This document shows positions 20,755 through 47,133 of a stretch of DNA of 48,139 bases, piece by piece. Source of the stretch: Candidatus Woesearchaeota archaeon (GTDB taxonomy: Archaea > Nanobdellota > Nanobdellia > Pacearchaeales > GW2011-AR1). The notes below the pieces were generated by a model. That model did no database searches and had not been told where the DNA came from. It was given only the letters and a program-made list of their open reading frames with translations. The stretch spans positions 1,467-49,605 of the forward strand of contig CAYXZJ010000002.1 in the NCBI GenBank assembly GCA_964470085.1, read 5' to 3'. Position numbers and translations under genes: made by a program. Each line of letters starts with the position of its first letter. Within the stretch, counting starts at the first letter, position 1.

Positions 20755-20908
20755 GTTTCCGTTTTTCAGTAAAATATTTAGATGAATCCTTTGGAGCATC
20801 TCGTATTTGTTTAAATTTATACCCTGAATCTAAACACTCTGATCCACATTTTCTACATATATTCGTCAAATTGTATTCTTTACAAACAGTACATTGTTTT
20901 AGACCCAT
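20741..20908 (-). CDS. nop10: Nop10-like zinc-ribbon protein (H/ACA RNP component), 55 aa
   Basis: Absent from the track. MGLKQCTVCKEYNLTNICRKCGSECLDSGYKFKQIRDAPKDSSKYF has CxxC..YxL..CxxCG. It lies immediately downstream of aIF2alpha (TAATG overlap), the conserved archaeal aIF2alpha-nop10 gene order. Confidence 0.55.
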   Translation of the reverse strand: MGLKQCTVCKEYNLTNICRKCGSECLDSGYKFKQIRDAPKDSSKYFTEKRKHENS

Positions 20909-25600: not shown

Positions 25601-27007
25601 AAAATCCTCACCAATAAGATAGCATTCACCATCCACCTGCCATTGATGACCATTAGCTATACAATCTTCCGAATTATTATATCTACAAATTCCAGAACTA
25701 TCACGTTCACCAGGACATTGAAAACATTTATCTGAAAATACGTCATACCTATATATATTATAATTGTTATAATTTTTTATTAAACATGCATCCTCTGTAG
25801 ACAATAATGACGCATTATATTTTACACAAAATGCCTGATTTTGATCTTGAGGGGTATTGCAAAATTGACTTTCTCCACAATCAGAAGATGTTGTACAGGT
25901 TTTTCCTAAAACAGTTCCACAAATTCCATTAATACATGTTTCTTTAGAAGAACAATCTAAATTATCATTACATGTACCTGATTTAGAAAAAGAAGGTAAT
26001 CCATCCATATAAGAAAATTCGACTTCAGCTACTGATCCTATTTGTGACCAGCATTTACCATCTTGCTGCCATATTGTTGTATAATATTTATTACTTTCAC
26101 GACAAGTTCTTTCAGTCATGATACCATAATAATTTGCACCATCATAGCATTCATTATCTATCCATACAAAACCATCCCCCACACATAAATCTGCATTATC
26201 ATATGACCAAACACCATTTTCATATTTTACACCATCAAAATTCGAACTACGATCATAACACACATCATCTATCTGCCATGTTCCACCATTAGCTATACAA
26301 GCTTCCGAATTATTAATTCTACAAATTCCATCTTTATCAAATATACCATCATCACATTTAAGACAACTTTTTGAAGATCCATCATATTTGTATACTTTGT
26401 AGTCCTTAGAATTTTGATTTTCACATAATTGTTTATTAGACAAATAAGTAACTGAAATTTCTACTGAGGGAATTTCGTCAATAGTATCATTTTTTGAAAC
26501 ATTTACTTCGACACCATGTATTATTCCAGAAACATTTCCAGATTCAAATGAACAATTAATTAATCTTCCACCGCTTGCTAAAAATCCAGCAATACCACCC
26601 ACATTATTTCCACCAATTACAGTAGAATCAGTTACATGCAAATTTTTTACAACACCACTTGAACCAATATAACCAAACAACCCTACGTTTTCTTCATATG
26701 GTTTACTAATATTTAATCCAACTATAGCATAACCATTACCATCAAAATTCCCATTGAATGGATTTGAAGAACCTCCTATTGGGGAAATAGAGGTATTAAA
26801 ACAATCAATATCACTAGCTAATTCATAATAGGCATTCATTAAATCAGAATTTTCTAATGAAAGTAGATTATCTAAATTTGAACAAGAATCAATTGTATAC
26901 GGAGAACTTTGTGTTCCAATACCCTCTCCTTTCCACGTACCTGCAAGAGACATACTAATAAATAATACAAATCCTAGACATAACAGTATCACCTTTTTTG
27001 AATCCAT
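22694..27007 (-). CDS. Giant (1437 aa) secreted surface protein: GLUG-type repeats split by a Cys-rich module, LamG/ConA-like lectin domain, C-terminal Ig/CARDB-like region
   Basis: Signal peptide MDSKKVILLCLGFVLFISMSLAG. GLUG-like motifs NVGLFGY, NVGGIAGF, NIGGLVGK, YFGGLVGY, YVGGFAGY, YVGGFIGV, ending with WDLGGVWKLVDSDYPKLTW. LamG-like FGGWIKT...WNHIMVV...LYLNG...FNGFIDEFKIFN. NITNIGKVDVTDLTLNV is CARDB-like. Confidence 0.85.
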   Translation of the reverse strand: MDSKKVILLCLGFVLFISMSLAGTWKGEGIGTQSSPYTIDSCSNLDNLLSLENSDLMNAYYELASDIDCFNTSISPIGGSSNPFNGNFDGNGYAIVGLNISKPYEENVGLFGYIGSSGVVKNLHVTDSTVIGGNNVGGIAGFLASGGRLINCSFESGNVSGIIHGVEVNVSKNDTIDEIPSVEISVTYLSNKQLCENQNSKDYKVYKYDGSSKSCLKCDDGIFDKDGICRINNSEACIANGGTWQIDDVCYDRSSNFDGVKYENGVWSYDNADLCVGDGFVWIDNECYDGANYYGIMTERTCRESNKYYTTIWQQDGKCWSQIGSVAEVEFSYMDGLPSFSKSGTCNDNLDCSSKETCINGICGTVLGKTCTTSSDCGESQFCNTPQDQNQAFCVKYNASLLSTEDACLIKNYNNYNIYRYDVFSDKCFQCPGERDSSGICRYNNSEDCIANGHQWQVDGECYLIGEDFSELYYNTTSNSWQLNEKGCSNKNFDWKEDACYYFSESTCDGVYFSSGQCFEKGSDDYIAFYENEYTIEDYIEEFGGCVDSEGWHHSDGNCGEPVVIDDSSYDDDYEEVSSSTDNNGVTTIVSKNYASGYEACMGDEECLKHYEQGGTIEVIAPVLLPLIPFVSASQLDVPDVSGNNIGGLVGKSHGIIDSCFVSDTYIQPILTNSEYFGGLVGYVVSSTITNSYVRNSNVGISGSKKNGKGTTYVGGFAGYVENGEITNCYSALNTINGRTYVGGFIGVNSAVIKNSFTKENVLNIAGLNYDSSVEGCFTSWNKNNNLDLVYSQSICGTEYKEECDYNSCRAWGKSCKCGSFWCARQKPKCWDSSLSINAFTNLNSNVNGITDIGSTKVTGTGISRSGLFKEWDLGGVWKLVDSDYPKLTWSENNKNSTIYSLRKKICEGKYQCGRIEEYGINCGTCSSNLYTCENNRCTSSNIIDIKTNIIQPRINCVSELNPILKYGIYDSKLLKNISFTKGTLNKNLDMSNLIYSVSFDSSNDMRSGVFGEYGDNNNGIWNENGIYGGALKFVANNKSNFNTKVKNFVDNSFSFGGWIKTNEEHEIDGNSLDGTLGVAGQKYAVWPDHHGDTGAGLGLSVGTNGISVYGHGTNYMPALLTYNADIGNDWNHIMVVCDSNKIMLYLNGHNVKNSSKISKTLYSPTIIGGGSYGYFNGFIDEFKIFNESLDSSEIEFLYESNVRPGNINTNDYWEFETRLADSEKYEYKLDVCSLAGSCISSGKQSIMVGNCDVNVLINEISSIEENMWKYNITNIGKVDVTDLTLNVNTDEFQLIIEPSNFINNESRTIEDSIILEKGQSQNITVMFNPKDDTILDMVPTLMDDGRIYLSKNVELTFGFNNQNNYETKQITLKYYLSCNESNKDTIYTLNGDKYTCICNKFCKEGEYCPCVTSPKIGELYKIINGIASVVFNVTRF

Positions 27008-27560: not shown

Positions 27561-28034
27561 TTATTTTTCAGAAGCAATTATCCAAATAATTAGTCCAACA
27601 ACTACTAAAACAACCAAACCTGTACCAAAAACACCTTTTGTTGCTAAAGAACCAAACCATCCAGAAATTTGTGTATTTAATCCAGTTGAAAATAAAACTA
27701 CTCCTATAACAAATAATCCAACTAAAATACCTAATGCAATTTTTAATGGTTTGGGGGTATTTTTTTCAATATCTCCAACAACAAAACCATATAACACAAA
27801 AAATATAAACAAAATAGCCAAACCGACACCAAGCCAAGGCATGATGTTAACAATAAAATCTCTTGGTTTCGGAAAAGAAATTAATAATGCTGCTATAACT
27901 AAAGAAAGAATAGAATTAATTTGATGTTTTTTATCTCCTAAAATTTTCGTCTTTTCTAATATTGCAAAAGTTAATACAAAAACCAAAATGAATGGTAATG
28001 CCATCTCCAACAAAAAATCTTGTACAAACTCCAT
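27561..28034 (-). CDS. 4-TM membrane protein, LPF-x-LVF...AILEKTK family (paralog 1 of 3)
   Basis: ALPFILVFVLTFAILEKTKILGDKK aligns with the same motif in the 39544 and 40057 ORFs, and the TM layout is the same. Confidence 0.75.
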   Translation of the reverse strand: MEFVQDFLLEMALPFILVFVLTFAILEKTKILGDKKHQINSILSLVIAALLISFPKPRDFIVNIMPWLGVGLAILFIFFVLYGFVVGDIEKNTPKPLKIALGILVGLFVIGVVLFSTGLNTQISGWFGSLATKGVFGTGLVVLVVVGLIIWIIASEK

Positions 28035-28076: not shown

Positions 28077-28715
28077 TTAAAGTATAATTGAATAAAATTC
28101 TTCAATATCTTTTAATGATAAAATAGGTAAAAAATCTTCTTTTGACAAATTAATAATATTTTTTATATTTCCGAATTGTTTCAATAATTCCTTTGCCTTC
28201 TTATTTCCAATTCCATAAATTCCCTCAAGAAAAAATATTTTCTTCTCTTCTATGGATTTGGCCTTTTTAGAATATCTTACTTGTCCAACAGTCACATTTT
28301 TACAACTCATAAATTTCAAAAATTCAGCAGTTTCTTTTTCATTATTAACAAAAAGAATTGGGACACCTAATGTCATACAATAAGAAGAAAAGAATCCCCA
28401 AAAGACATTTTTGTTAAATTTTTTATATTCCATTAGTCCTTCAATTAAAATAATTTTTTGTTTTATTTCAATCATATTTTTTACTTGTTCCTTAATTCTA
28501 CCTGAATATATACTAGAAAAAAAATCACTTGCCGTTTTTCTTTCAACAACAATATCATTTACTATATAATCTCCCACATCTAATTTTTCAAAAACCACAT
28601 TCATTTTTAATTTAAACAAATAAGCAGGAACCATAGAATTTTTTTCTCTTGTATCAACAATAATAGTTCGTTTCTTATCAACTGGCATTTTTTTAAACAA
28701 GAAAATATCTTCCAT
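28077..28715 (-). CDS. XPF/Hef-type ERCC4 nuclease with C-terminal (HhH)2
   Basis: IIVDTREKNS, VGDYIV...VERKTASDF (ERKxxxD), GIYGIGNKKAKELLKQFGNIKNI. Confidence 0.85.
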   Translation of the reverse strand: MEDIFLFKKMPVDKKRTIIVDTREKNSMVPAYLFKLKMNVVFEKLDVGDYIVNDIVVERKTASDFFSSIYSGRIKEQVKNMIEIKQKIILIEGLMEYKKFNKNVFWGFFSSYCMTLGVPILFVNNEKETAEFLKFMSCKNVTVGQVRYSKKAKSIEEKKIFFLEGIYGIGNKKAKELLKQFGNIKNIINLSKEDFLPILSLKDIEEFYSIIL

Positions 28716-28766
28716 TAAGGTATAAAAATAATTATTATTATAAAACTTAAAACAAAAATTGGATAA

Positions 28767-30311
28767 TTAAAGAGTTAATTGTTTCTGAGAATCAATATTT
28801 AATCCATTTTTTTGTATATCATCAATTACTTTATGCATTTTCTTTTCTTTATTATATGAAGAATAATAATAAACCTCGTCCCTTGTTGCCTTGGTTATTA
28901 AAACTTTTAATTGTCCAGGAGCTAACCTTGCAGTTCTTCCAGTTCTTTGAATTTTTCTAATTGCTGAAGGAACTGGTTCATAAAAAATAACTAATGAAAC
29001 TTCCGGAATATCCAAACCTTCTTCCGCAATAGATGTAGCAATCAAAATATTAATATCTCCCGACTTAAATTTCTCGACCATTTCTTTTTGTTCTTTTTGT
29101 TTCAATCCTGTTTTAACTCCACGAGTATTTTCTTTCATCGCTTGTCCAACAAAAATTCCCGGTTTCGCCCCAGAAACATCACTCAAAAATTCTTTAATTT
29201 TATTAATGGTTTCTCTAAATTGAGCAAATATTATTATTTTTGAGTTTGTATTTTCTTTAAATGAATTTTTTATTATTTCTTTTAATTCATACAATTTCGG
29301 ATGTTCCTTTCCTAGATTTAACGCTAAAGAATAAGCTTTAGAAAAACGAGGATCCGAAGTTATTTTTTTTACCGCACGAGATTGATTTTCAGAAGATTGT
29401 TTGTATAATTCTCTCATATATTCAACAAATGAAGAAATCGTTTGAGTCTCTAACAATTCTACTGCATGAGAAATTTTCAATGCCTGAGCGCAAAGAGAAA
29501 CACCAATCATACTATTACCGTCCTTATTACTCTTTCTTAATTCAATCATTAAACGATTCTGTATTTTCAATAACATTACCTTATTTGCATACCCAAAAAG
29601 AATTTTTCTCTCCTTTAGTTCGTTTAATTTATCGTTATATATTTCATCTAATAATATTTTTATCTCCATAAACTCATTAGGAAAATCAACAAATATTTTT
29701 TCAAAATCTAATTCTTGTAAATACGGTTTAACATCTGGAGATTCTCTCGTTCTAACTTCTACTCTTTTTATATTCATATTTAGACAAACATCTTCAATTG
29801 TTTTTTTATCACCACCAGGAGAAGCAGTAAGTGCTAATATCTGACCATCATCATTTTGAATCTTATATCTAGTAGCAATTTTGTTATAAGAATAATTTTT
29901 GAGACATCTATGGGCCTCATCTATGATAAGTAAAGAAACGTCTTTTAGATTATACAATTCCTTCTGAATATCATTACTAATACATTGCGGAGTAGAAAAA
30001 ACAAATTCTGCAGTTCTCCATACTTTTTTTCTATTATCTGCATTTGTTTTCCCAGTAAACAATTGCATATCTGCCCATCCTTCCGGAAACGATTTTTTAA
30101 AAGAATTCAAATGTTGTTCGATTAAAGGTCTTGTTGGAGCCAAAATAACAACTTTCTTCAACGGATTTTTAATAAATTTATATTCTGAAAGCATCATCGC
30201 AATTAATGTCTTACCTGTTCCAGTTGGTAAAACAACTAAAGAATTAACATCTTTAATAGACTCAAAAATCGTCTTCTGATATTCTCTCGGATTAATAAAC
30301 AAACCTCTCAT
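28767..30311 (-). CDS. hef: Hef/FANCM-type SF2 helicase (helicase part only)
   Basis: REYQ, VLPTGTGKT, IIDEAHRC, ALTASPG, QRTGRTAR. A helical insertion lies between the RecA lobes, as in Hef. Confidence 0.85.
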   Translation of the reverse strand: MRGLFINPREYQKTIFESIKDVNSLVVLPTGTGKTLIAMMLSEYKFIKNPLKKVVILAPTRPLIEQHLNSFKKSFPEGWADMQLFTGKTNADNRKKVWRTAEFVFSTPQCISNDIQKELYNLKDVSLLIIDEAHRCLKNYSYNKIATRYKIQNDDGQILALTASPGGDKKTIEDVCLNMNIKRVEVRTRESPDVKPYLQELDFEKIFVDFPNEFMEIKILLDEIYNDKLNELKERKILFGYANKVMLLKIQNRLMIELRKSNKDGNSMIGVSLCAQALKISHAVELLETQTISSFVEYMRELYKQSSENQSRAVKKITSDPRFSKAYSLALNLGKEHPKLYELKEIIKNSFKENTNSKIIIFAQFRETINKIKEFLSDVSGAKPGIFVGQAMKENTRGVKTGLKQKEQKEMVEKFKSGDINILIATSIAEEGLDIPEVSLVIFYEPVPSAIRKIQRTGRTARLAPGQLKVLITKATRDEVYYYSSYNKEKKMHKVIDDIQKNGLNIDSQKQLTL

Positions 30312-30343: not shown

Positions 30344-30634
30344 TTACATTTCATCTTCATTACTAGCTACAATACTCTCTTCTTCCTTAACTGCAGGAAC
30401 TGCATTTCTACTTATAATAACAATATCACCTATAGCTTTAATAAATTGATGAGGAACAATAATACCTCTAGAACCGCCTAACAAATTCAACATAGTCAAA
30501 TCTTTAGCAACAATTCTCCAACCATCTATTCTATTATTTACGATGTTTATCTCCTCTACTTTACCGAAGAATTCACCATTATCAGTATAAACTTGTTTCT
30601 CAAGCATATCAGCTATCTTTTTTATTCTTAACAT
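30344..30634 (-). CDS. PRC-barrel domain protein
   Basis: KQVYTDNGEFFGKVEEINIVNNRIDGWRIV...IVPHQFIKAIGDIVII is a typical small archaeal PRC-barrel pattern. Confidence 0.65.
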   Translation of the reverse strand: MLRIKKIADMLEKQVYTDNGEFFGKVEEINIVNNRIDGWRIVAKDLTMLNLLGGSRGIIVPHQFIKAIGDIVIISRNAVPAVKEEESIVASNEDEM

Positions 30635-30686: not shown

Positions 30687-32069
30687 TTATGCCATTTCAC
30701 AATCCCATTGACTACATAAAGCCTCTTGGAACTTTTCATCAGATCCATCTCCCTTTGGCCAATCAACCATAGAAGATAATTTACTCATAGTCTCATCATC
30801 CCATTGATAAAATATCAATTGTGTGAAAGCATCCTCTGATTCTGATGGTCTATATGTCATAGAACTTGTTGTAATAAAAAATTTACCCCCATTTGGATTA
30901 ATACTTTCCGGTAATAATATACTATATTTAATTTTATTATACTTATTTTTTTTAGGCATGATAGAACAATCAGATGAATATATTTCTATTTCTTTACCAT
31001 CTTTATTAGAAGCAGTTTTTGTTTCACATTCTATATAATATTCTTTAGTGAAATATGTTTCACCATTCTGATAATAAGACCTTCTTATGTAATCACAAAC
31101 TCCTTCTGTACAACTACCTTTTTTATAAATAAAATAAGAATCTTGACTATTTATATTATAAATTCTTTCTACAACAGAATAATCCGAATTAACATCTACA
31201 TCCATTTGTCCGTAAATATACTTATTACCATATAACCAATTTGGTTCACTTAATAAAGGTACATTCTCATCGTTAATATAAACTTCATTTTCTCCTACTG
31301 ATATAATTATTCTAGCAATCTCAAGTGGTTTACCATCAAATATAGCAAAAGTTATATTAACTGTTCCTATTATAATTGTATCATTCAATAAATCATATTC
31401 TTCTGTACAAAAATCAAGATCTTTATTGTTTTGATCTTGATACGAATACATATTATTACATTTACTTGTTGTTTTTGTCATTGAAATTTTATACGCAGCT
31501 TCATTTTCTTTAAAGTTTACATCAAATTCGTTCCAATATAAATTATTTAATATCAATGGGTTTTGCCCCTTATTCGTCAAATATTGTTTATACGTTATCT
31601 CAGATTCTAATTCATTATCCATTGAATCCTTTATATTTATTGGATTTTCAGAATAATACTGTTTGGTGTCTTCCCTAAATTCAAAATATGCGCAAACACA
31701 ACATGTAGAATATGCATCAAAATTTTTCTTTGAAAAAATATCATATTCACCCTTTCCCCATAAATTCCAACATTCAGCCATCTTAGTTAAAATTTCATTA
31801 GTAGCCCTTTCAGTATCATTATAATCTATTTGAATTCTTTGAGATTTACATTTTAATGGATATTTTTCTTTTAAATCCATCAATGTTAATCCAGAAACTT
31901 CAACATCTGGGATAGTATTACGCAAAATAATACTTTCTTTACAAATTTCTTCATTCACATCATCATCATTAAAATATTCTTGAAAAATCCAATACAAACC
32001 TATTGACATAACAATCAAAGCTAATATAATTGATATAATCCAATACGAATATCCTCTTTTATTTTTCAT
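30687..32069 (-). CDS. Membrane-anchored extracellular protein of unknown function (460 aa)
   Basis: N-terminal signal anchor YWIISIILALIVMSIGLYWIF. Asn/Tyr/Cys-rich ectodomain with no motif I recognise. Confidence 0.7.
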   Translation of the reverse strand: MKNKRGYSYWIISIILALIVMSIGLYWIFQEYFNDDDVNEEICKESIILRNTIPDVEVSGLTLMDLKEKYPLKCKSQRIQIDYNDTERATNEILTKMAECWNLWGKGEYDIFSKKNFDAYSTCCVCAYFEFREDTKQYYSENPINIKDSMDNELESEITYKQYLTNKGQNPLILNNLYWNEFDVNFKENEAAYKISMTKTTSKCNNMYSYQDQNNKDLDFCTEEYDLLNDTIIIGTVNITFAIFDGKPLEIARIIISVGENEVYINDENVPLLSEPNWLYGNKYIYGQMDVDVNSDYSVVERIYNINSQDSYFIYKKGSCTEGVCDYIRRSYYQNGETYFTKEYYIECETKTASNKDGKEIEIYSSDCSIMPKKNKYNKIKYSILLPESINPNGGKFFITTSSMTYRPSESEDAFTQLIFYQWDDETMSKLSSMVDWPKGDGSDEKFQEALCSQWDCEMA

Positions 32070-37175: not shown

Positions 37176-37658
37176 ATGAAAAAAAGAGGAGATAAGGTTC
37201 CGGCAATTCCATTAAAACAAGAATTACCTACACCACACTTAGTTGACCCAAATGGATTAGATAAACAGAATTTTTTACAAAAGTCTGAAACACAATATAC
37301 CCCACTACCTCAAACAAATTTTCAAAATACATTTCAAAGTGGATTTGTGCCTGTATCACCAATTCAATCACAACAAGGTTTATCAACATTTTCTCCAACC
37401 ACGAGAGAATTAAACTTACAACCAAGTCAAACACAACAAGAAGATCAACCATTTTTTGTAAGAATCGACAAATTTAATTTATCGAAGGGATATTTGAATA
37501 GTATAATAAAAAAAGTTGATGATGTAAAGGATATAATTGACAATTTAGAAAAAATAAAAGAAAAAGAAAATCAAGAAGTTTCTGAATGGAAGCAACAAAA
37601 CAATTCTATTAAAGAACTACTTACACAAATAGATAGAGAAATGTTCGGGAAGTTATAA
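37176..37658 (+). CDS. Q/P/T-rich N-terminal low-complexity region + C-terminal coiled-coil protein
   Basis: QKSETQYTPLPQTNFQNTFQSGFVPVSPIQSQQGLSTFSP...QPSQTQQEDQ, then PFFVRIDKF...IIDNLEKIKEKENQEVSEWKQQ. Confidence 0.6.
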   Translation: MKKRGDKVPAIPLKQELPTPHLVDPNGLDKQNFLQKSETQYTPLPQTNFQNTFQSGFVPVSPIQSQQGLSTFSPTTRELNLQPSQTQQEDQPFFVRIDKFNLSKGYLNSIIKKVDDVKDIIDNLEKIKEKENQEVSEWKQQNNSIKELLTQIDREMFGKL

Positions 37659-37659
37659 A

Positions 37660-37995
37660 ATGGATGAGAGTATTTTTGTCCCTATAACTTTTGAAAAATA
37701 TAGAAATAACAAGATTTCTGGTCTGAAAACACAATTATTAATTAAAAAGTCTTTTTTACAACTAAAAAAAATCGAAGAAATTAGAGATTTAAAAGAAGAT
37801 TATATTAAACAATTAAAAAAAGCCACAAACGATATTTATAGAGATTTAAATTTATTGCAACAGCAATTGCCAAAACTTAAAGGAGAAACTAAAAAACAAC
37901 AACAGATTATTGATAAACCCAAGATAAATTATTCTAACAATATTGATGACGAATTAGAAAAAATACAGGCCAAGTTGAGAGCATTATCGTCATGA
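37660..37995 (+). CDS. Small coiled-coil protein
   Basis: Heptad-like K/E/L/Q pattern. Its start lies 2 nt after the previous stop, and its 3' end overlaps the next gene by 4 nt (ATGA). Confidence 0.55.
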   Translation: MDESIFVPITFEKYRNNKISGLKTQLLIKKSFLQLKKIEEIRDLKEDYIKQLKKATNDIYRDLNLLQQQLPKLKGETKKQQQIIDKPKINYSNNIDDELEKIQAKLRALSS

Positions 37996-38276
37996 ACAAA
38001 ATAATATTATTGGATATTATTATTCTTTTTACGATATTCGTCGGAATTCTTAGTATAAATATAAATGACCGAATTGAAGGAAATATTAAATCAGTTGATT
38101 ATGGAAATAATAAAATTACAATTTACTTAAATAATAAGGAAAATCCAATAATCGTTTTTGAAAATTCAATTCTAAATCTCAAGAACGGAGACACAATAAT
38201 AGCATATGGTAAAAACGATCTTTATCGACAAAAACAACAATTAATCGCAGAAAAAATAGTTAAAATAACTAATTAA
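37992..38276 (+). CDS. Membrane-anchored small beta-rich (OB-fold-like) protein
   Basis: N-terminal TM IILLDIIILFTIFVGILSI, then RIEGNIKSVDYGNNKITIYLNNKENPIIVFEN...GDTIIAYGK (alternating beta pattern). Confidence 0.5.
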   Translation: MNKIILLDIIILFTIFVGILSININDRIEGNIKSVDYGNNKITIYLNNKENPIIVFENSILNLKNGDTIIAYGKNDLYRQKQQLIAEKIVKITN

Positions 38277-38326
38277 TTATCCTAATTTTTATATAAAAAA
38301 CAAATAATACATTTTCTTTTTGGTTA

Positions 38327-39496
38327 ATGATTCAGGAAGTTATCGTTTTTATTCTGGGAATAATCTCTGGAATTATTACAGGTCTACTTCCTGGAATTCA
38401 TAATAATTTAATTACAACTCTTTTAGTTACATCCGGCTTAATCTATAAATTTTCAACGAAATTAGGAATTATATACATTGTTTCGTTATCGGTCACAAAC
38501 ACATTCACAGATATAATACCATCAATTTATTTATTTTGTCAATCACCAGACACAGCAATAATTTCAACTCCAGGACAAAAAATGGTTGCCGAAGGTAATG
38601 GGCACATAGCAATAAATAATACCATTAAAGGTTCGATAATTGCAATAATAGCCTTTCTAATAATTTTATTTCCTTTGATATTAATTTTACAATTTTACGA
38701 CAAAATAGAAATTATGTTCCCTTGGTTACTTAGCTGGATAATTATCTTATCTGTTTATCGAACTGAAAACAAAATAGAAACAATAATTATTATACTTCTT
38801 TCTGGTGTTTTGGGATTTTTTGTCCTGAATTCAACGGTAAATCAACCATTATTACCATTATTAACTGGATTTTTTGGAACAGCAGATTTGATAACAACAA
38901 AAACCGATAAAATTCCTCATCAAGAATTAACTGAAGAAAAAATAACACTAAAAGAATCTTTTCAAATTTTAATAAAAACCTTAATTATTTCTCCACTTTG
39001 TTCTTTATTGCCTGGGCTTGGAACAAGTCAAGCATCTATGTTAGGAAATTTCAAAAAACAAGAACCAAAACAATCAATGATTTTAATCGGATCAATAAAT
39101 ACACTCGTTTTATGTACCTCTTTTATAACATTATATTCCATAAACAAAAGTCGAAGCGGAGCCGCCGCCGCAATATCTCAACTAACTTTTTTAACAAAAT
39201 CCGACCTTCTAACAATTATTATTACTATATTAATAACCGCAATTGTCTCTGCAAAAGTAACCAATTTACTTTCTAAAAAAATATCTAAGAAAATAAATAA
39301 AATTAATTTTCAGGTTTTAAAATTTTCAATACTTATTTTCGTTTCAATATTAACAATCGCAGTCTCCGGAGTTCAAGGAACAATTATTTACATAACATCT
39401 ATTCTTATCGGAATTTTGACAATAAAACTCAACGTTACAAAATCTAGCATGATGAGTTGTATATTACTATCAACAATAATTTATTATCTACCTTAA
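38327..39496 (+). CDS. Polytopic membrane protein, TctA/DUF112-like
   Basis: GIITGLLPGIHNN and SLLPGLGTSQASML resemble the repeated G-x-PG-hG motifs of DUF112/TctA (recall only). About 10 TM segments. Confidence 0.6.
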   Translation: MIQEVIVFILGIISGIITGLLPGIHNNLITTLLVTSGLIYKFSTKLGIIYIVSLSVTNTFTDIIPSIYLFCQSPDTAIISTPGQKMVAEGNGHIAINNTIKGSIIAIIAFLIILFPLILILQFYDKIEIMFPWLLSWIIILSVYRTENKIETIIIILLSGVLGFFVLNSTVNQPLLPLLTGFFGTADLITTKTDKIPHQELTEEKITLKESFQILIKTLIISPLCSLLPGLGTSQASMLGNFKKQEPKQSMILIGSINTLVLCTSFITLYSINKSRSGAAAAISQLTFLTKSDLLTIIITILITAIVSAKVTNLLSKKISKKINKINFQVLKFSILIFVSILTIAVSGVQGTIIYITSILIGILTIKLNVTKSSMMSCILLSTIIYYLP

Positions 39497-39543
39497 TCTT
39501 CTATAAAACAAAAGTATATAAATATAAAAAAATCTAATAGTAC

Positions 39544-40056
39544 ATGGTTTCAATAACAGAAATATTTGCAACATGGCAAAGTTCCGGAATATTTACTTAC
39601 GTTTTACCATTCTTTTTGGTATTCGGTATTATTTTTGCAATTTTAGAAAAAACAAAAGTTTTTGGAGAGAGTAAAAAGGAAATCAACGCAATAATTTCAA
39701 TTGCTTCTGCATTATTAATGTTACAAATTGACGCAGTTCCACAATTTTTTTCAAACATATTTCCTAAACTTGGAATTGCTTTAGCTGCGTTATTAGTTGT
39801 CTTGATTTTTGTAGGTTTTTTTGATAGTGATACTAAGGAAAATATGAAAAATAAATGGATTGGCATAGTATTCGCAGGAATAATTATTTTGTGGGCGGTT
39901 GTTTCAAGTATTCCAAATTGGTCACAATATGAAGGATTAATAAACTGGTTACAAGGTGAATGGTTAACTTCATTTATACCAATACTAATATTAATAGTAA
40001 TATTTGTTATAGGAATAACTAAAAGTGGACAAAGCGGAAAAAGCGGGAAACCTTAA
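39544..40056 (+). CDS. 4-TM membrane protein, LPF-x-LVF...AILEKTK family (paralog 2 of 3)
   Basis: YVLPFFLVFGIIFAILEKTKVFGESKKEINAIISI. Confidence 0.75.
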   Translation: MVSITEIFATWQSSGIFTYVLPFFLVFGIIFAILEKTKVFGESKKEINAIISIASALLMLQIDAVPQFFSNIFPKLGIALAALLVVLIFVGFFDSDTKENMKNKWIGIVFAGIIILWAVVSSIPNWSQYEGLINWLQGEWLTSFIPILILIVIFVIGITKSGQSGKSGKP

Positions 40057-40527
40057 ATGACAACTGCATCAATAGTCACATATTTTTTGCCAATATTCTC
40101 TTTCTTATTAGTATTTATTGTATGCTATGCAATTCTACAAAAAACAAAAGTTTTAGGAAATAATTCAGGTACTAGTTTACTTATCTCGCTTATATTAGCA
40201 AGTTTTTTTATTGTTGAAACACAACTCTCAGAATTTATTCAATTTACGTCTTCATGGATTAGTGTTATAGTAATAATTTTATTTTTCTTATTTGTAATAT
40301 TAGCATTCATACCAGGAAAAGAACCACTTAAATTCATATCAGACGGATGGTTCAGTTGGGTAGTATTAGCTTTAGTAATAATCTTTTTTATAACGTCCGC
40401 AACTTATGTTTTCCATTGGACTATAAACTTAACAAATGCACTTTCTTGGATGCAAAAAGATTGGTTCCAGTTTCTTTTATTAATAATTATTTCAATTGTG
40501 GTAGCTGGTGTACTAAAAAAAGAATAA
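40057..40527 (+). CDS. 4-TM membrane protein, same family (paralog 3 of 3)
   Basis: YFLPIFSFLLVFIVCYAILQKTKVLGNN. The start directly abuts the paralog 2 stop. Confidence 0.75.
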   Translation: MTTASIVTYFLPIFSFLLVFIVCYAILQKTKVLGNNSGTSLLISLILASFFIVETQLSEFIQFTSSWISVIVIILFFLFVILAFIPGKEPLKFISDGWFSWVVLALVIIFFITSATYVFHWTINLTNALSWMQKDWFQFLLLIIISIVVAGVLKKE

Positions 40528-40575
40528 TAATTCTATACCCAAAACCTTTTAAATGAAAATCGTTTTTATAAAAGT

Positions 40576-40935
40576 ATGAAAATCGGAAGAAAAATTAGTG
40601 GTGGAAGATATAAACATCCAAAAAAGAAAAAAAGCACAGGTAGACAGAGTCAAGCAAGAATTGTAAAGATCGGAGAAAACAGAGTAAAGACACTTAGAAC
40701 TCGTGGTGGTTCTGAAAAAAACGTTTTATTAGCAGGAAATTCATGTAACATAATTATTGATGGAAAAGCAAAAAAAGCAACAATAAAGAATGTTATTGAA
40801 ACACCAGCAAATGTTTTTCTAGCTCGTCAAAATATTATTGTTAAAGGTGCTGTTTTAGAGACTGATTTAGGAAAAGTAAAAGTGACAAACAGACCATCAC
40901 AAGAAGGTCAAATACAAGCAGTTCTCGTTGAATAA
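40576..40935 (+). CDS. rps8e: 30S ribosomal protein S8e
   Basis: MKIGRKISGGRYKHPKKKKSTGRQ...VKTLRTRGG...NVFLARQNIIVKGAVLETDLGKVKVTNRPSQEG. Confidence 0.9.
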   Translation: MKIGRKISGGRYKHPKKKKSTGRQSQARIVKIGENRVKTLRTRGGSEKNVLLAGNSCNIIIDGKAKKATIKNVIETPANVFLARQNIIVKGAVLETDLGKVKVTNRPSQEGQIQAVLVE

Positions 40936-40984
40936 GTATAGAAATACTTTAATAATCTATAATTCTTATAGGTAAGAGGTTACT

Positions 40985-43249
40985 ATGTTTGGTGAAAATA
41001 CTCCATTATATTCTAGCGAGACTGTTAGAGAAAGCGGTGAAAATGTAATATATATTAATTATATGGGCGCAAATTTCGTCCCAAGTCTATCTGATTCTTT
41101 TGAAGTTATGGCAAGAACAATTGACGTAATAAACGAAGATCCAAACATTAGCCGTATAGTTTACGTACAACAAAGAAATTACAGTCACAATTTTTCACAA
41201 GTTAAATATTTATTAGAAGTTTCTCAGTTATTTGAATTTCTAACAAAACAAGAAAAAGTTGTATCGATTGAATCATTAAATCATTTAGGCTATTTTTATG
41301 AAGAGGCATATTCTTTTTTTAACTATATTATAAACGAATTACTAAAGGGTGATCCAATAAGAGCTTACAGAGAATTAAAGGGCGCATTGTTCGAGCAAAG
41401 AGCACTTTCAGAAAAAGGTTACGAAAACGCAAATTACATAAAAATGCTCGAAAAAGTTATCAGATATTTTGATCAACTTGAATTAATAGAAAAATCAAAA
41501 AAATATTACGACAAATACAAATTTAACAGTCGAGAAATTTATTCAGAATTTTTTAGAGCAGATATAATGCCTAATTTTACATTTACAAGAATGGTTTCTA
41601 AAATACCAGAAGACGCAGAAATAATTGAAGAATATGAAATTTCAAAAGAAGGAGAACATTCTTTTGTAACTATATACAAAAGTCCAAACAAAACTAAATT
41701 AATTTATCATCTAAGCCCACCTGAATATAATTTAAGTGAAGAACAACATATGTTATTAAACTTAGCTAGAAACGTTTTAGTCGAACATAAGCCCGAACAA
41801 GACAAGACAAACGATACAGAAAGGACAAGACAAATTTTCTTAAATGTAAGCAAAGATTTGTTGAGAGATTTAGCAAATAATAAAAATATTAATTTAACCT
41901 ACGAAGAAATAAATAAATTATCAAATATACTTGTACGACATACAATCGGCTATGGAATATTAGAAGTTTTATTAGAAGACGAAAAATTACAAGATATAAT
42001 GGTAAATGCTCCAGTAAGTTTGAGTAATATATTTGTTTTGCATAACGATTTTGGAGAATGTGATACAAATATAATTCCATCTCAAGAAGATGCAAATTCG
42101 TGGGCGACAAAATTTAGAATGAGTAGTGGAAGAGCACTAGATGAAGCTAACCCAATATTAGATACAAACCTAGAACTCCCAAACGCAAGCGCCAGAGTTG
42201 CTATAATTCAAGAACCATTAAGTGAAGGCGGTTTAGCATATACATTAAGAAGACATAGAAATAAACCTTGGACACTTCCACTTTTTATAAAAAACAAAAT
42301 GATTAATGGATTGGGAGCGGGACTTTTATCATTTATTATTGACGGAGCACGAACAATGTTAGTAGCAGGAACACGTTCTAGCGGAAAGACATCTTTGTTA
42401 TCAAGTTTACTCTTGGAAATAATGCCAACACATAGAATTATTACAATAGAAGATACACTCGAATTACCAGTTGCTGATTTACGAAAAATGTCTTATGATA
42501 TTTTAAGTATGAAAGTAAGAAGTTCATTAAGCGGAGAAACAAGTGAAGTTGACGCAACTGAAGGAATTAGAGCCAGTCTTAGACTTGGAGATTCATCCTT
42601 AATAGTTGGAGAAATTCGTAGCGACGAAGCAAAAGCACTTTATGAAGCAATGCGAGTTGGTGCATTAGCAAATGTTGTTGCTGGAACAATTCATGGTGGA
42701 AGTCCTTATGCAGTTTTTGATAGAGTTTGTAATGACCTAGCAGTTCCAATAACATCTTTCAAAGCTACGGATTTAATAATTATAGCAAACCCAATAAAAA
42801 CAGCTGACGGACTAAAATCAGTCAGAAGAGTTTTGTCTATTAGCGAAGTTAGAAAACATTGGGAAAAAGATCCATTAAAAGAGGGTGGATTCGTCGATTT
42901 AATGAAATATGATGTAAATAAAGACATATTAGAGCCAACTGATGATTTAATAAACGGAGACAGTGAAATAATAAAAGAAATTGCAGGAAATGTAAAAGGT
43001 TGGGCTGGAAATTGGGATAACGTTTGGGATAATATAAAATTGAGACAAATGGTAAAAGAAGAAATTGTAAATTACTCTGACAAACTCAAGAATAAAGATT
43101 TATTAGAAGCAGACTTTACAATTAAAAGTAATAACGCATTTCATCAAATAAGTAATCAAGTAACAGATGAAATTGGAATTCCGAAAAGCGATATTGTTTT
43201 TCCTAAATGGAAAGCTTGGTTAGAAAAAGAAGCACAAAAAATTTCTTAG
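40985..43249 (+). CDS. Type II/IV secretion-system ATPase (FlaI/ArlI/VirB11/GspE family) with long N-terminal region
   Basis: Walker A AGTRSSGKTS (nt ~42370-42395, about residue 465), Asp box IITIEDTLEL, Walker B LIVGEIRSDEA, His box AGTIHG. Confidence 0.9.
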   Translation: MFGENTPLYSSETVRESGENVIYINYMGANFVPSLSDSFEVMARTIDVINEDPNISRIVYVQQRNYSHNFSQVKYLLEVSQLFEFLTKQEKVVSIESLNHLGYFYEEAYSFFNYIINELLKGDPIRAYRELKGALFEQRALSEKGYENANYIKMLEKVIRYFDQLELIEKSKKYYDKYKFNSREIYSEFFRADIMPNFTFTRMVSKIPEDAEIIEEYEISKEGEHSFVTIYKSPNKTKLIYHLSPPEYNLSEEQHMLLNLARNVLVEHKPEQDKTNDTERTRQIFLNVSKDLLRDLANNKNINLTYEEINKLSNILVRHTIGYGILEVLLEDEKLQDIMVNAPVSLSNIFVLHNDFGECDTNIIPSQEDANSWATKFRMSSGRALDEANPILDTNLELPNASARVAIIQEPLSEGGLAYTLRRHRNKPWTLPLFIKNKMINGLGAGLLSFIIDGARTMLVAGTRSSGKTSLLSSLLLEIMPTHRIITIEDTLELPVADLRKMSYDILSMKVRSSLSGETSEVDATEGIRASLRLGDSSLIVGEIRSDEAKALYEAMRVGALANVVAGTIHGGSPYAVFDRVCNDLAVPITSFKATDLIIIANPIKTADGLKSVRRVLSISEVRKHWEKDPLKEGGFVDLMKYDVNKDILEPTDDLINGDSEIIKEIAGNVKGWAGNWDNVWDNIKLRQMVKEEIVNYSDKLKNKDLLEADFTIKSNNAFHQISNQVTDEIGIPKSDIVFPKWKAWLEKEAQKIS

Positions 43250-43869
43250 AATCCGAATGAAACCATAAAGAACAAAACAGATAAAATTGTACTTATAAAC
43301 CATAGAATTTTATTTCCGAAAAATAACTTTGAACCATCTAAATCTGACAAAGGAATAATTGAAGCTACAGCATAATAAATATTATATTTTGCAAGTATTT
43401 CAAAACCACAAAGATAGAATACAACTGAAAAAAATAAATGACAGATAACTGACACAAAAACTATAATTGCTAAATCACGTTCACTAACTTCAGAAAAATT
43501 ATACAACCCATGTCGTTTTGAAGCTCTTTCTGGTTTAGGTTCAACATTAAAAACTAGAATTGGGATCCACTGAAAAAAACCATTAGTTACAAAACTAACA
43601 ATTAATGGTAACCAAGTCATAGGAAATGGTGTTTTTAATTTATGACTAGGTCTAAAACCAATATTTTGAATACTCCATAAAGAATATTCAATATTTGTTT
43701 CATAATAATAACCAGCTATTTTTTTAGTTAAAACATTAATTCCAATAGTTATTGATATATACAACAAAATAAACCAAAACGAATTTGTATTTTTATAATA
43801 AAGTGAAACTGACAAAACAACTGCAGCCAACAAAATAGAAAAAAATTCTTTCAAATATTTATTTTCCAT
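43246..43869 (-). CDS. M50/site-2-protease-like polytopic membrane protein lacking the HExxH motif
   Basis: ISITIGINVLTKKIAGYYY aligns with the S2P helix ..T.HE.GH...A...G, but His/Glu/His are replaced by G/I/L. The C-terminal IIPLSDLDGSKLFFG keeps the NxxPxxxLDG-type motif. Confidence 0.5.
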   Translation of the reverse strand: MENKYLKEFFSILLAAVVLSVSLYYKNTNSFWFILLYISITIGINVLTKKIAGYYYETNIEYSLWSIQNIGFRPSHKLKTPFPMTWLPLIVSFVTNGFFQWIPILVFNVEPKPERASKRHGLYNFSEVSERDLAIIVFVSVICHLFFSVVFYLCGFEILAKYNIYYAVASIIPLSDLDGSKLFFGNKILWFISTILSVLFFMVSFGF

Positions 43870-43893
43870 ATTAAAGCATAAACAATTATTTTT

Positions 43894-44535
43894 TTAAGAC
43901 TTCCTATTTATTTTCTGTAATTCTCTATAATTATCGATTAAGGGATTCATCAATTTGGAAGTTGTATCGTGCAAATTTGAGACATCTCTTCTTATTGCGG
44001 ACGTATTTTCTCCAAACTCACCAATCTTTTGAATTATTGATTGTTGTAATTTATCAATTGTTGTTTCAATTCTTTTTAATCTAGTATCAATATCAGATAT
44101 CTTATCCATAACTGAACTTTTAAACAATGCAATATCTCCATTTTTTTTATTAAATTCTTTAAACTTTTCAGAAACAATCTGTTCTACAATATCGCTTATA
44201 GTCTCAGTGTCATAAGATGGTTGCTGATAATATTGTTGTTGATTATCTTGATATGAATTCGGATACTGATCTTGATAACTATATTGCTGTTGATTCATAT
44301 CTGGTTGTTGTTGATATTGAGAATAATTCACAGGAGCTTGAGAATATTGTTGTCCAATTTGAACCTCTGGAGACTGCATCGGTTCTGCCTGATTAACAGC
44401 ATTTTTTATTTGAGCTTGATTAATTGCATCATTTATTTCTCTTGGAGAAACTCCTTGAGACTGTAATGTCATAGAAATTTGTTCATTCGACATTCCACTC
44501 TGTTGTAATTGTAATACTGTATCTAAAATTGTCAT
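43894..44535 (-). CDS. Three-part protein: small helical N-domain, Q/Y-rich low-complexity core, C-terminal coiled coil
   Basis: ILDTVLQLQQSGMSNEQISMTLQSQGVSPREINDAINQA; QQYSQAPVNYSQYQQQPDMNQQQYSYQDQYPNSYQDNQQQYYQQPSYD; ISDIDTRLKRIETTIDKLQQSIIQKI. Confidence 0.65.
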   Translation of the reverse strand: MTILDTVLQLQQSGMSNEQISMTLQSQGVSPREINDAINQAQIKNAVNQAEPMQSPEVQIGQQYSQAPVNYSQYQQQPDMNQQQYSYQDQYPNSYQDNQQQYYQQPSYDTETISDIVEQIVSEKFKEFNKKNGDIALFKSSVMDKISDIDTRLKRIETTIDKLQQSIIQKIGEFGENTSAIRRDVSNLHDTTSKLMNPLIDNYRELQKINRKS

Positions 44536-44540
44536 TATTA

Positions 44541-44930
44541 TTAATTGTTTTTAGAGTTTATATTTTTTTGTTTTATTTGTTTTGATATTTTAAACTCTTC
44601 TAAGTCTTTCATTCTAACAAACTCTAATGGTTGAAAATCTTTCAACATTCGTTCAACAGAAACAAGTTCCTCCTTTTTCACATATTTTGCATTATCTCTA
44701 ATTAAAAAATTTATAGCAGATTTTATCTTTTCAATATCTTCCTGTATTGTAGAAACTTTCTGTCTTAATTCTTTAATATCTTCTGTAGACTCTTGTTTTA
44801 AATCAACAAAATTTTTACCAAGAACATGAGTTTTTTCCTTTATAATTTTTGATCGTTCTTCAATATCTCTCAAACGAGTAGAAAGTTCAGAAAAATAATA
44901 TTGATTATCAACCTCTTGATTTTGATCCAT
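44541..44930 (-). CDS. Small coiled-coil protein
   Basis: LSTRLRDIEERSKIIKEK...IKELRQKVSTIQEDIEKIKSAINFL. Confidence 0.55.
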   Translation of the reverse strand: MDQNQEVDNQYYFSELSTRLRDIEERSKIIKEKTHVLGKNFVDLKQESTEDIKELRQKVSTIQEDIEKIKSAINFLIRDNAKYVKKEELVSVERMLKDFQPLEFVRMKDLEEFKISKQIKQKNINSKNN

Positions 44931-44964
44931 ATTGTCTACAATTCAATTTTATTTATATATGTTA

Positions 44965-47133
44965 TTATCCTATACCTGCAAGAGCAAATCCGGCGATTAA
45001 TGTTAATGCAGTAATAGAAATAAATGCTATTAATACGTATGTCGTTATACTTTTTTTCAGATTTCTTCCAGTTTCAGAGACCTTTGTTAAATCGTCCTTA
45101 CCATTATTAATCGTAACCAAAGTTGATGTTAAAATAAAAACTATTTCAATCAAATATATTCCGACAACAACTTGCATCCAATAAGGAGGAATCATTGTAG
45201 CATAATTTCCGAACATTTCCGTAACATTACTCAATGTTCCACCCATTCCACTTAATGCACCAGAATCTGTTGTGCCTAACATTCCGCCTAAATTACTTAA
45301 AATTAAAGTTATCATTCCACTTAAACCAATAATTATACCAGAAAGCATAGGAGCCATAAAACTCATATTACTTTTCATATCACTTATAATATCAGCCAAC
45401 AAATCTCTTAATCTTTCATTTACTTTATTCACATTTTTTACATATTCAGATATACTCATCAAACTTTTCGCTGCAACCTGTAATCCTTTTTTAACAGACT
45501 CAACTAAAATTTTCATTGACATTACAATTAAATGTGATGGATAGAATATTGTAGCCCCACGATTATTATCAAACAAAGCTCTATCAACATTCATTCCAAA
45601 ACTTCTAATATTATCACTTACTAACATAAAAAAACCTTCACTAGACGTTCCTTTACTAGATTCAGCAACTTTCCCGAATGCAACTTCTGCTGGAATACCA
45701 TCACCAATTCTATTCCCCAATTGAAATAAAGATGATGTAAACTCTTTTTCAACTTCATCATATTTTTGTTTTTCTTTAATCATATCTTCTGTACGTTTTT
45801 TATATGAATATGAAAACATTGTTGCAATTCCTAATGGAACACATAAACTCATAATCATAGCAATAGGCCCAAATGGTCCATATACCTTACCCATACTTTC
45901 TTCAATCCCAAAAATTTTCACATTCTGAAGGAATCCAAATCCTAAATCAGCAAATGTCCAATCTAATGGTAAACCTAATACTGTATGTAATGGAGTATAC
46001 ATCCAAATCAATGGGAAAAATCCTACCAATAAAATTGGCAATGCAACAAGAAAGCCTTTTAACAAACTTCTTTTATCGACGAATTTAGAATACAATGGGT
46101 TTTTTTGTAATAATGTGCTATCTCCATATCCCCCAGGACGTTTATACATAATATCATACGTTAAATAAATAACAAAAAAAGGAATTATTAAATTAAATAC
46201 AATAAATAAATGACTCGTTTTTATTGCACCACCCATTAATGTAGATGCCAATGGTAAAATTGCTAAAGCTAAAGTTGGTAAAACAATTCCTAACATATAT
46301 ACATTTGTTAAAGGAGATTTAACCTCATGAGTATATTTTAACATTTTATCATATACTCCTTCTAAAATCAAAGATAATGATCTTTCCAAGATTTCTACCC
46401 TTCGTCCTTCACTTGGTTCAAATAAACTAGACTCAACCAGATGGAAAGACTCAATAAATTCCAAAGAATAATCTCTCCAAACTTCCAAATAACTATCAAT
46501 AGATTCTTTTATTGTTGCATATCTTTTTGTTTGAACATTCCATAATATTGTTTTAAAATCTGATGCCAATGGATCTTCCAAATTTTCCGCAGCAAACGCA
46601 ATTGCTCTTTCAAGATTACTTGTATGTTTCATATAAATTACTACATACAACAAGGCTGGAACCATCTGGCTACTAGCCTTAAGACGCCATTTCATAGCTA
46701 ATCTGCTAGGATATTTACTAAGAAAATAAAACATAAATATTGAAAAACCAAAAAACAAAAATAACATTAACATTGGGAACTCTGCTTCAGTATTTTGTGA
46801 TTTAGAAATTAAAAAAGTTCCAACACAAAATAAAAAACCACAAACCATAATAACACACATAAGAACTGCTGAAAGTCCCATAACTTCCGACGGACTAACA
46901 TTTAAATGAGCTATATTAATATTTTTTTGAATTTCGTTTGCATCTTTATCTTTTACTTTTATTTTAAAAGTTTTACCTAAACTTTTACACCATTTTTCAT
47001 ATTTGGAAAAATCTGGGAACATTGACTCTTTATAACTTTCATATGTTTGAGTAAAATCAGAATTATTATCAAACTGATTCATTTGTTTTTCTATTTTACT
47101 TCCATACTTTTTCAAAATATCATCAGTATTCAT
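44965..47133 (-). CDS. FlaJ/ArlJ/PilC-like polytopic platform protein (two T2SSF-like helical domains), 722 aa
   Basis: Two cytoplasmic helical bundles, each followed by TM clusters: QMVPALLYVVIYMKHTSNLERAIAFAAENLEDPLASDFKTILWNVQ... and EFTSSLFQLGNRIGDGIPAEVAFGKVAESS...VDRALFD.... The topology fits T2SSF duplication. Confidence 0.7.
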   Translation of the reverse strand: MNTDDILKKYGSKIEKQMNQFDNNSDFTQTYESYKESMFPDFSKYEKWCKSLGKTFKIKVKDKDANEIQKNINIAHLNVSPSEVMGLSAVLMCVIMVCGFLFCVGTFLISKSQNTEAEFPMLMLFLFFGFSIFMFYFLSKYPSRLAMKWRLKASSQMVPALLYVVIYMKHTSNLERAIAFAAENLEDPLASDFKTILWNVQTKRYATIKESIDSYLEVWRDYSLEFIESFHLVESSLFEPSEGRRVEILERSLSLILEGVYDKMLKYTHEVKSPLTNVYMLGIVLPTLALAILPLASTLMGGAIKTSHLFIVFNLIIPFFVIYLTYDIMYKRPGGYGDSTLLQKNPLYSKFVDKRSLLKGFLVALPILLVGFFPLIWMYTPLHTVLGLPLDWTFADLGFGFLQNVKIFGIEESMGKVYGPFGPIAMIMSLCVPLGIATMFSYSYKKRTEDMIKEKQKYDEVEKEFTSSLFQLGNRIGDGIPAEVAFGKVAESSKGTSSEGFFMLVSDNIRSFGMNVDRALFDNNRGATIFYPSHLIVMSMKILVESVKKGLQVAAKSLMSISEYVKNVNKVNERLRDLLADIISDMKSNMSFMAPMLSGIIIGLSGMITLILSNLGGMLGTTDSGALSGMGGTLSNVTEMFGNYATMIPPYWMQVVVGIYLIEIVFILTSTLVTINNGKDDLTKVSETGRNLKKSITTYVLIAFISITALTLIAGFALAGIG

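Follow-up and report, generated by a model that had tools for sequence, protein, structure and literature searches.

The stretch of DNA analyzed here is a window of 48,139 nt from the assembly of a Candidatus Woesearchaeota archaeon (contig CAYXZJ010000002.1, positions 1,467 to 49,605), with a G+C content of 25–31%. At 37176–47133 it carries two converging gene strings, which encode a secretion ATPase of 754 amino acid residues (40985–43249, plus strand) and a predicted platform protein of 722 residues (44965–47133, minus strand), together the candidate motor pair of a divergent type IV pilus-like machine. All 12 open reading frames (ORFs) that a first-pass annotation, made from the sequence alone, had described in this region were recovered at the same positions and on the same strands. 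The genes of the plus string are packed closely, with intergenic gaps of 1, −4, 50, 47, 0, 48 and 49 nt, and those of the minus string are separated by 24, 5 and 34 nt. The two strings overlap tail to tail by 4 nt (43246–43249), as had been noted before, and the stop codons confirmed this overlap: within the sequence TTAG, the TAG of the ATPase gene occupies 43247–43249 and the TTA (reverse) of a 207-residue gene occupies 43246–43248. Below, the plus-strand trio at 37176–38276 is designated A, B and C, the ATPase H, the platform L, and three membrane paralogs E, F and E3; the minus string consists of I, J, K and the platform gene.

The 754-residue protein belongs to the PilB/FlaI/TadA/VirB11 superfamily, as proposed in the first-pass annotation. 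It matched Pfam T2SSE (2e-15) and contains a Walker A motif (AGTRSSGKTS, residues 461–470), an Asp box (485–494), a Walker B motif (537–545) and a His box (565–572). Among proteins of the PDB, matches were obtained with afGspE (4.8e-31), CpaF (5.5e-25), FlaI (3.9e-18) and VirB11 (∼1e-7). The best NCBIfam model was FlaI (3e-44), with a score of 151.7 bits that lies far under the 550-bit cutoff, and the TadA model TIGR03819 scored 129.9 bits. An oversized N-terminus, estimated earlier at about 200 residues, was also found. Because the alignments with afGspE and the FlaI model begin at query residues 205–210 (residue 210 pairs with residue 27 of afGspE, and residue 205 with position 19 of the NCBIfam FlaI profile), the additional N-terminal part amounts to ∼185 residues; a further excess of ∼40–55 residues lies at the C-terminus. 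The N-terminal domain (approximately residues 1–190) is strongly conserved, with many invariant residues, and its AlphaFold2 (AF2) model (mean predicted local distance difference test, pLDDT, 84.9) consists of a small β-β-α-β-β unit and a helical bundle, for which no structural match was found in the PDB (best E-value 0.14, template modeling score, TM-score, ≤0.23). More than 6000 homologues of the ATPase were detected, with a length of ∼755 residues, and the best 120 listed are 70–86% identical. One homologue of 1266 residues (P0215) is interrupted by an intein, with intein/LAGLIDADG domains PF14528 and PF14890. The ATPase expected of a type IV filament assembly system was thus found at the locus.

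The 722-residue protein had been described as a FlaJ/PilC-like platform, and this description was supported indirectly. The protein has nine predicted transmembrane segments and two cytoplasmic helical bundles. When its AF2 model (pLDDT 77.7, predicted template modeling score, pTM, 0.76) was compared with known structures by Foldseek, the first match was the PilC chain 3jc8_Ca of the type IVa pilus (T4aP) machine model (probability 0.82). The cytoplasmic domains matched EpsF (2vma_B, probability 0.99, TM-score 0.71) and OutF (5nbg, probability 0.97, TM-score 0.73); both TM-scores are target-normalized and apply at the domain level, with a root-mean-square deviation of ∼3 Å. A profile search against 1.84 billion representatives yielded 1169 clusters with the platform architecture. 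Pfam T2SSF was matched by six of the ten most divergent listed members of this family (family-profile E-values 1e-73 to 1e-84), and these matches were distributed over both cytoplasmic domains; for the divergent member P0380, the match (4.4e-7, 30.4 bits) exceeded the gathering score. Some homologues of the platform have been named “TadB” by the Joint Genome Institute (JGI). A failure of the 722-residue protein to resemble T2SSF-type folds, which the first-pass annotation had named as evidence against its own proposal, was not observed in the AF2 and Foldseek analysis. The T2SSF-type cytoplasmic helical domains required of a type IV filament platform were found by fold and by transitive matches, and on these grounds the protein is predicted to be a very divergent platform of the T2SSF/TadC/FlaJ type.

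The surroundings of the ATPase gene were compared by scanning one genome per GTDB species, which gave 80 loci with ATPases 42–86% identical to that of the window; gene order and presence were determined by tblastn and family hidden Markov models (HMMs), and the counts refer to 86 sources, many of which are incomplete. The close homologues derive from metagenome-assembled genomes of Pacearchaeota, Woesearchaeota and Nanoarchaeota. The dominant gene order is Hef(−), I(−), PRC(+), E3(+), E(+), F(+), J(−), K(−), ATPase(+), a few variable small ORFs, the platform and then an array of class III genes. K was present in 77 of the 86 sources, J in 75, the E family in 64, the platform in 61, I in 50 and PRC in 47. 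Wherever positions were listed, K lies directly upstream of the ATPase gene in divergent orientation and J adjoins K, including loci with 42–49% ATPase identity; even L083 (Nanopusillaceae, 42% identity), L075 and L076, the most distant loci, have J and K beside the ATPase. The ATPase gene is accompanied more constantly by J and K than by the platform gene.

According to the first-pass annotation, the window has no ORF with a class III (prepilin) signal peptide, no A24 prepilin peptidase and no FlaH/FlaG/FlaF or KaiC-like gene. The absences of the latter genes were borne out by scans of the window, including profile and homology scans for the A24 peptidase. A class III signal-peptide protein of 460 residues, on the other hand, was identified by motif scan and sequence at 30687–32069 (minus strand), adjoining the PRC-barrel and Hef genes; it begins with MKNKRG followed by YSYWIISIILALIVMSIGLYWIF. 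Homologues of this protein occur in 21 loci, nearly all of them located past the platform on the flank opposite the ATPase, which is also the site of the pilin arrays; the 460-residue protein is likely a minor pilin, or a protein associated with the pilus, that has been moved out of the array.

The loci of relatives carry such arrays together with an A24 peptidase, and the proposal of a motor without pilins and prepilin peptidase did not hold. In the 8 kb beyond the platforms, with known membrane genes masked, 238 class III-like ORFs were counted in 276 kb (0.86/kb), versus 40 in 341 kb (0.117/kb) in the rest of the same loci, a 7-fold difference. The leaders end in KKG (67), KRG (53) or KKA (31), and the following residue is mostly Q, E or D; judged by sequence, these K-[KR]-[GA] leaders represent the classical archaeal class III signal. 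In L002, about ten co-directional class III ORFs follow the platform, one of them with the N-terminus MEKKG followed by QQMTLGTIILIVLGIAVLVFLIF. The arrays contain small (100–150 residues), conserved pilin-like proteins, sometimes in tandem, and large class III proteins (300 to >600 residues); many loci share a small pilin whose helix reads ...GF(S/T)xGW. At the end of the L040 array (20738–21592), a protein with seven transmembrane segments and the sequence GGGDVK, detected by motif scan, matched Peptidase_A24 (7.1e-14, 52.6 bits, cutoff 26.5). Homologues of this peptidase were found by tblastn in 15 loci, distal to the pilin array where this was compared (for example L040, L016 and L020), and among the 17 loci with at least 7 kb beyond the platform, 11 carry it.

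The nearest relatives of the window, L086, L084 and L085, have ATPases 77–86% identical to that of the window and the same gene set. In this sub-lineage the platform gene is divergent from the TFIIB gene, and beyond TFIIB lie, in this order, a secreted protein of 1607–1873 residues, a class III protein of ∼625 residues (...KRG followed by QVTLFIILAIIIVGG) and the pilins, which are found at 1453–1896 in L085 (MKKG followed by EMTITTIIAIVLAVAILVFLIYGFSTGW), as two tandem copies in L084, and at 367–1182 in L086. The giant secreted proteins (L084 3685–8898, L085 3986–8809, L086 3256–8877), for which the gene tables give no Pfam match, lie between TFIIB and the pilin genes, each beside the ∼625-residue class III protein, and are candidate pilus-associated adhesins. 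In L005, whose ATPase is 85% identical, three class III ORFs lie at a distance of 4 kb from the cluster; homologues of the L005 pilins were sought in the window and none was found. Since the window ends inside the TFIIB gene, its own pilin block is expected 6–9 kb past the right end. The apparent lack of pilins and peptidase would then be due to the window boundary, to rearrangement in the sub-lineage and to pilins that profile libraries do not see. A canonical pilin/peptidase operon elsewhere that accounts for the pair, which the first-pass annotation had listed as a reason to give up its proposal, was thus found in part, namely in the loci of relatives.

Taken together, these results suggest, with a probability that we put at about 0.8, that the locus is the motor part of a divergent DPANN type IV pilus-like machine and not a new machine devoid of pilins; included in this estimate is the view that the machine is confined to the Pacearchaeota/Woesearchaeota/Nanoarchaeota branch of DPANN and nearly universal there. 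Several observations weigh against it. Direct searches with the 722-residue protein, by phmmer and profile hmmsearch against the sequences of the PDB and by comparison with Pfam and NCBIfam, yielded no match; a 36-sequence platform profile likewise retrieved nothing from these sources, and none of 35 aligned homologues matched T2SSF. The whole-chain Foldseek E-values of the platform were weak (≥0.14), the good values being the domain-level probabilities and TM-scores, and a comparison of its N-terminal and C-terminal halves by hhalign detected no repeat. None of the pilin candidates matched Pfam pilin or archaellin models, and the pilins of this genome, except the 460-residue protein, and its A24 peptidase are deduced from relatives. 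The platform was not nearby in L012, L039, L052, L058, L066, L075 and L082, each covering at least 6 kb downstream of the ATPase. L052, L058, L066 and L075 keep J beside the ATPase, and K too where checked; the ATPase-J-K unit is separable from its platform. The roles proposed for J, K and the E family are drawn solely from gene linkage. That I, PRC and the E family lie nearby is weaker evidence than it seems, because the synteny block also covers the unrelated genes for the Hef helicase, an ERCC4 nuclease, an M16 peptidase and diphthamide synthase; the presence of the Hef helicase in a long conserved block with the pilus genes shows that gene order in this clade is conserved even among unrelated genes.

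The two accessory proteins most constantly linked to the ATPase are cytoplasmic. K (129 residues, 44541–44930, minus strand) has no transmembrane segment, gave coiled-coil matches only and contains a coiled coil of ∼120 residues. J (213 residues, 43894–44535, minus strand), also without a transmembrane segment, begins with a short, conserved helical domain, which is followed by a Q/P/Y-rich linker and, at the C-terminus, a coiled coil; a weak similarity to K was seen in the C-terminal part of J (hhalign probability 45%, E-value 2e-4). When profiles of J, K and I were compared with the PDB, they returned coiled-coil or designed-repeat noise, or nothing. A and B were considered as paralogs of J and K and rejected, BLASTP similarity being nil.

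The membrane paralogs E (170 residues, 39544–40056) and F (156 residues, 40057–40527), both on the plus strand, had been described as two tandem proteins with four transmembrane segments. Their paralogy was confirmed (26% identity and HMM cross-matches), but each contains five hydrophobic segments, and a third paralog, E3 (157 residues, HMM 5e-50), with the same number of segments and the same cross-matches, is encoded at 27561–28034 on the minus strand. E3 is the orthologue of the first of three tandem genes in canonical loci; it lies ∼11 kb from E and F in the window, while the three genes are in tandem in most relatives. The E family gave no consistent match in Pfam or the PDB. The three proteins were rejected as divergent prepilin peptidases (the best PDB match, FlaK, 3s0x, reached only E 0.25, and no invariant Asp is present), and E and F were rejected as TctB, since only one of 26 members matches TctB (E 0.014) and the family is linked to the ATPase and not to TctA in most genomes. 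Accordingly, a TctABC system was represented in the window by TctA (5.6e-38), with E and F not being TctB, and no TctC binding protein was seen.

The remaining conserved neighbours are I and the PRC-barrel protein. I (207 residues, 43246–43869, minus strand) is a site-2-protease-like membrane protein of the M50 type that retains the LDG sequence and is without HExxH, in agreement with the first-pass annotation. Pfam Peptidase_M50 was matched by 17 of 19 I orthologues (best 3.3e-6), the copy of the window itself giving no match. K50, W65, P173, D178 and G179 are invariant, and the second motif, P...LDG, is retained; HExxH is absent from the I protein of the window and from the family consensus, in which the matching region reads N..AKK..A. 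I as a substitute prepilin peptidase was set aside as unnecessary, because the lineage has ordinary A24 peptidases. The PRC-barrel protein (96 residues, 30344–30634, minus strand; Pfam PRC 24.9 bits, cutoff 21.2) is encoded between I and the three membrane paralogs in the canonical locus. The relevance of both proteins to the pilus machine is uncertain.

The other genes of the plus string are A, a Q-rich protein with a coiled coil, B, a coiled-coil protein, and C, which has a transmembrane anchor and weak matches to OB folds (E 0.03–0.05), followed by the TctA-E-F group (38327–40527) and the S8e gene. The TctA/DUF112-like permease and S8e (5.2e-24), named earlier, were both recovered by Pfam. 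A, B, C, TctA, S8e and a DRG GTPase lie near the ATPase in the sub-lineage of the window only (L001/L004/L086, L005, L084 and L085), where gene content equals that of the window except for one inversion and where the trio A-B-C is kept as a unit beside the DRG GTPase. Thus, the accessory set that the first-pass annotation had ascribed to the motor was upheld for J, K, E and F, which are truly linked to the ATPase, and not for A, B, C, TctA and S8e, which are local passengers; I is a conserved neighbour. Loss of synteny of the accessories in related genomes, put forward there as a further counter-indication, was accordingly seen for these five genes.

How far the machine extends beyond its motor can be read in more than one way. 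J and K could be its sole accessories, with I, PRC and the three membrane paralogs being unrelated membrane or cell-division genes held in place by slow rearrangement. The unrelated genes of the conserved block noted above agree with this reading, as does the position of E3 and PRC, 10 kb apart from the remaining genes in the window. However, the E family lies beside J, K and the ATPase in L058, L061, L070, L073, L075, L076 and L078, where Hef, I and PRC were undetected, and its association survives inversions (L008 and L017). This explanation is considered rather unlikely.

The nature of the filament is open to a different interpretation, in which the pair drives a short pseudopilus or a bindosome-like device that presents large class III-anchored binding proteins or adhesins and no long pilus. 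The size of many class III proteins of the arrays, and of the 460-residue protein of the window, would fit such a device, as would the giant secreted proteins next to the pilins of the sub-lineage, and, according to the literature, binding proteins with class III tags occur widely among archaea. The arrays nevertheless also contain the small pilin-like proteins with a shared N-terminal helix, as for a major pilin, and they showed neither an ABC transporter nor a solute-binding domain, which makes a bindosome-like device improbable.

A divergent archaellum, i.e., a rotary motility organelle, was judged highly improbable. FlaI is the best NCBIfam model, many ATPase homologues are labeled “archaeal flagellar protein FlaI” by JGI, and fla genes have been reported in papers on Woesearchaeota; yet the score is far under the model cutoff, afGspE and CpaF match the ATPase better than FlaI does in the PDB, FlaH/KaiC-like, FlaF, FlaG and archaellin genes are missing from both the window and the gene tables of L001, L002, L084, L085 and L086, the pilin candidates match no archaellin model, and a recent survey argues that extra ATPase domains typify non-rotary systems. 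The earlier statement that the gene set matches neither archaella nor any known archaeal pilus therefore stands in its first half (no ArlH, ArlF or ArlG, and a FlaI score of 151.7 bits) and fails in its second, given the pilin arrays and A24 peptidase of the relatives. Equally remote is a pilin-less envelope-spanning machine, for example for protein or DNA transfer, with the coiled-coil, Q-rich, OB-like, TctA and M50-like proteins as its parts: the absence of a pilin array and A24 peptidase from the 48-kb window and the atypical size and sequence of the ATPase and platform speak for it, but orthologous loci have both beyond the platform, the pilins of the nearest relatives begin just past the point where the window ends, and A, B, C, TctA and S8e are tied to the ATPase only in the closest relatives, so that at the family level it is already largely refuted.

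On the type IV pilus-like reading, a hexameric PilB/FlaI-type ATPase (H) would dock, by homology, onto the cytoplasmic helical domains of the nine-segment platform (L). K and J may form a scaffold or regulator around the ATPase, like the subsystem-specific cytoplasmic helical proteins of other archaeal pili, and E3, E and F, whose linkage was observed, would be the most persistent membrane accessories. The predicted substrates carry a short basic leader, with K-[KR]-[GA] at its end, and behind it a hydrophobic helix; they would include the conserved pilin with the N-terminal ...GF(S/T)xGW helix and proteins of 300–620 residues that are likely minor pilins or tip adhesins. The A24 prepilin peptidase would process these substrates, and in the canonical locus substrate and peptidase genes are placed after the platform. 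In the present sub-lineage, the pilin genes would lie past TFIIB and the giant secreted protein, outside the window, and rearrangements may have moved E3, PRC and one class III protein to 27.5–32 kb. Attachment to a surface or to a host cell is inferred to be the most probable function. Tentatively, and at somewhat less than even odds, the J-K-ATPase triad, the three multi-transmembrane paralogs, the Pfam-invisible platform and the GF(S/T)xGW pilins might constitute a distinct DPANN-specific filament subsystem, outside current classifications, that serves as the main host-contact organelle of Pacearchaeota, Woesearchaeota and Nanoarchaeota.

Elsewhere in the window, two Cys-rich proteins are encoded on the minus strand: a secreted protein of 1437 residues (22694–27007) with Laminin_G_3 (1.4e-13) and GLUG (1.5e-12) domains and, following it, a protein of 333 residues (21651–22652) with a signal peptide and a C-terminal anchor. 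Both are possible adhesins, without relation to the giant proteins that accompany the pilins of relatives. Hef is split into two genes (28077–30311, minus strand), one for the helicase (514 residues) and one for the ERCC4 nuclease (212 residues). The remaining content of the window is archaeal housekeeping: SRP54, FtsY, SecY, RFC, RadA, RPA, NAC, S28e, L7Ae, TFIIB, the last of which is truncated by the right end, and four tRNAs.

DPANN archaea are thought to be host-attached, and the contact molecules are largely unknown for uncultured Pacearchaeota and Woesearchaeota. In a groundwater study of DPANN and candidate phyla radiation (CPR) organisms, type IV pilus components were stated to be “missing in DPANN genomes”, and pili were used to call cells CPR. 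This statement contrasts with the complete pilus loci seen here in many Pacearchaeota and Woesearchaeota, and a DPANN subsystem may have been overlooked because at least one study holds the components to be missing. The lineage appears to possess a complete, highly divergent type IV pilus locus with motor, platform, pilins and peptidase, in which the platform and pilins escape standard annotation and the ATPase is almost always paired with two uncharacterized coiled-coil proteins. These findings correct the impression of missing pilus genes and provide concrete candidates for studies of host attachment; they do not point to a new kind of machine.

What defines an archaeal type IV filament system is the combination of an ATPase with a platform, class III substrates and an A24 peptidase; subsystem-specific N- and C-terminal ATPase domains and cytoplasmic helical accessories are described as common among such systems. 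No publication was found in which the triad of J, K and ATPase, the E family or the present pilins are described. With the archaellum (ArlI/ArlJ/ArlH), the system shares a core of an ATPase of the same superfamily and a platform, and ArlX/ArlCDE are loosely analogous to J and K; unlike the archaellum, it has no ArlH, ArlF, ArlG or archaellins, and its FlaI score is far under the cutoff. The bacterial Tad/Flp pilus includes CpaF, which ranks second among the solved relatives of the ATPase (5.5e-25), and the score of its TadA model, TIGR03819, is 129.9 bits, as given above, but the present locus has one large platform gene instead of TadB and TadC, lacks TadZ and Rcp, and uses archaeal-type leaders. 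Subclade 4F of Makarova et al. (2016; PMC4858521), comprising halobacterial type IV pili with the coiled-coil arCOG07564, likewise has a cytoplasmic coiled-coil accessory linked to the ATPase; pilins are identifiable in the DPANN system. The two may be the same, a lead taken from the literature. Compared with the archaeal type IV pili of clades 2 and 4 in the same work (Aap, Ups, Epd and haloarchaeal PilB/PilC), the ATPase is ∼185 residues longer at its N-terminus, in a domain without a fold match in the PDB, the platform lies beyond direct detection by Pfam, the pilins match no Pfam model, and J, K and the three multi-transmembrane paralogs match no described family; it shares with these pili a VirB11/PilB ATPase, a TadC/FlaJ platform, class III arrays, an A24 peptidase of the PibD/FlaK/EppA type, extra ATPase domains and helical accessories.

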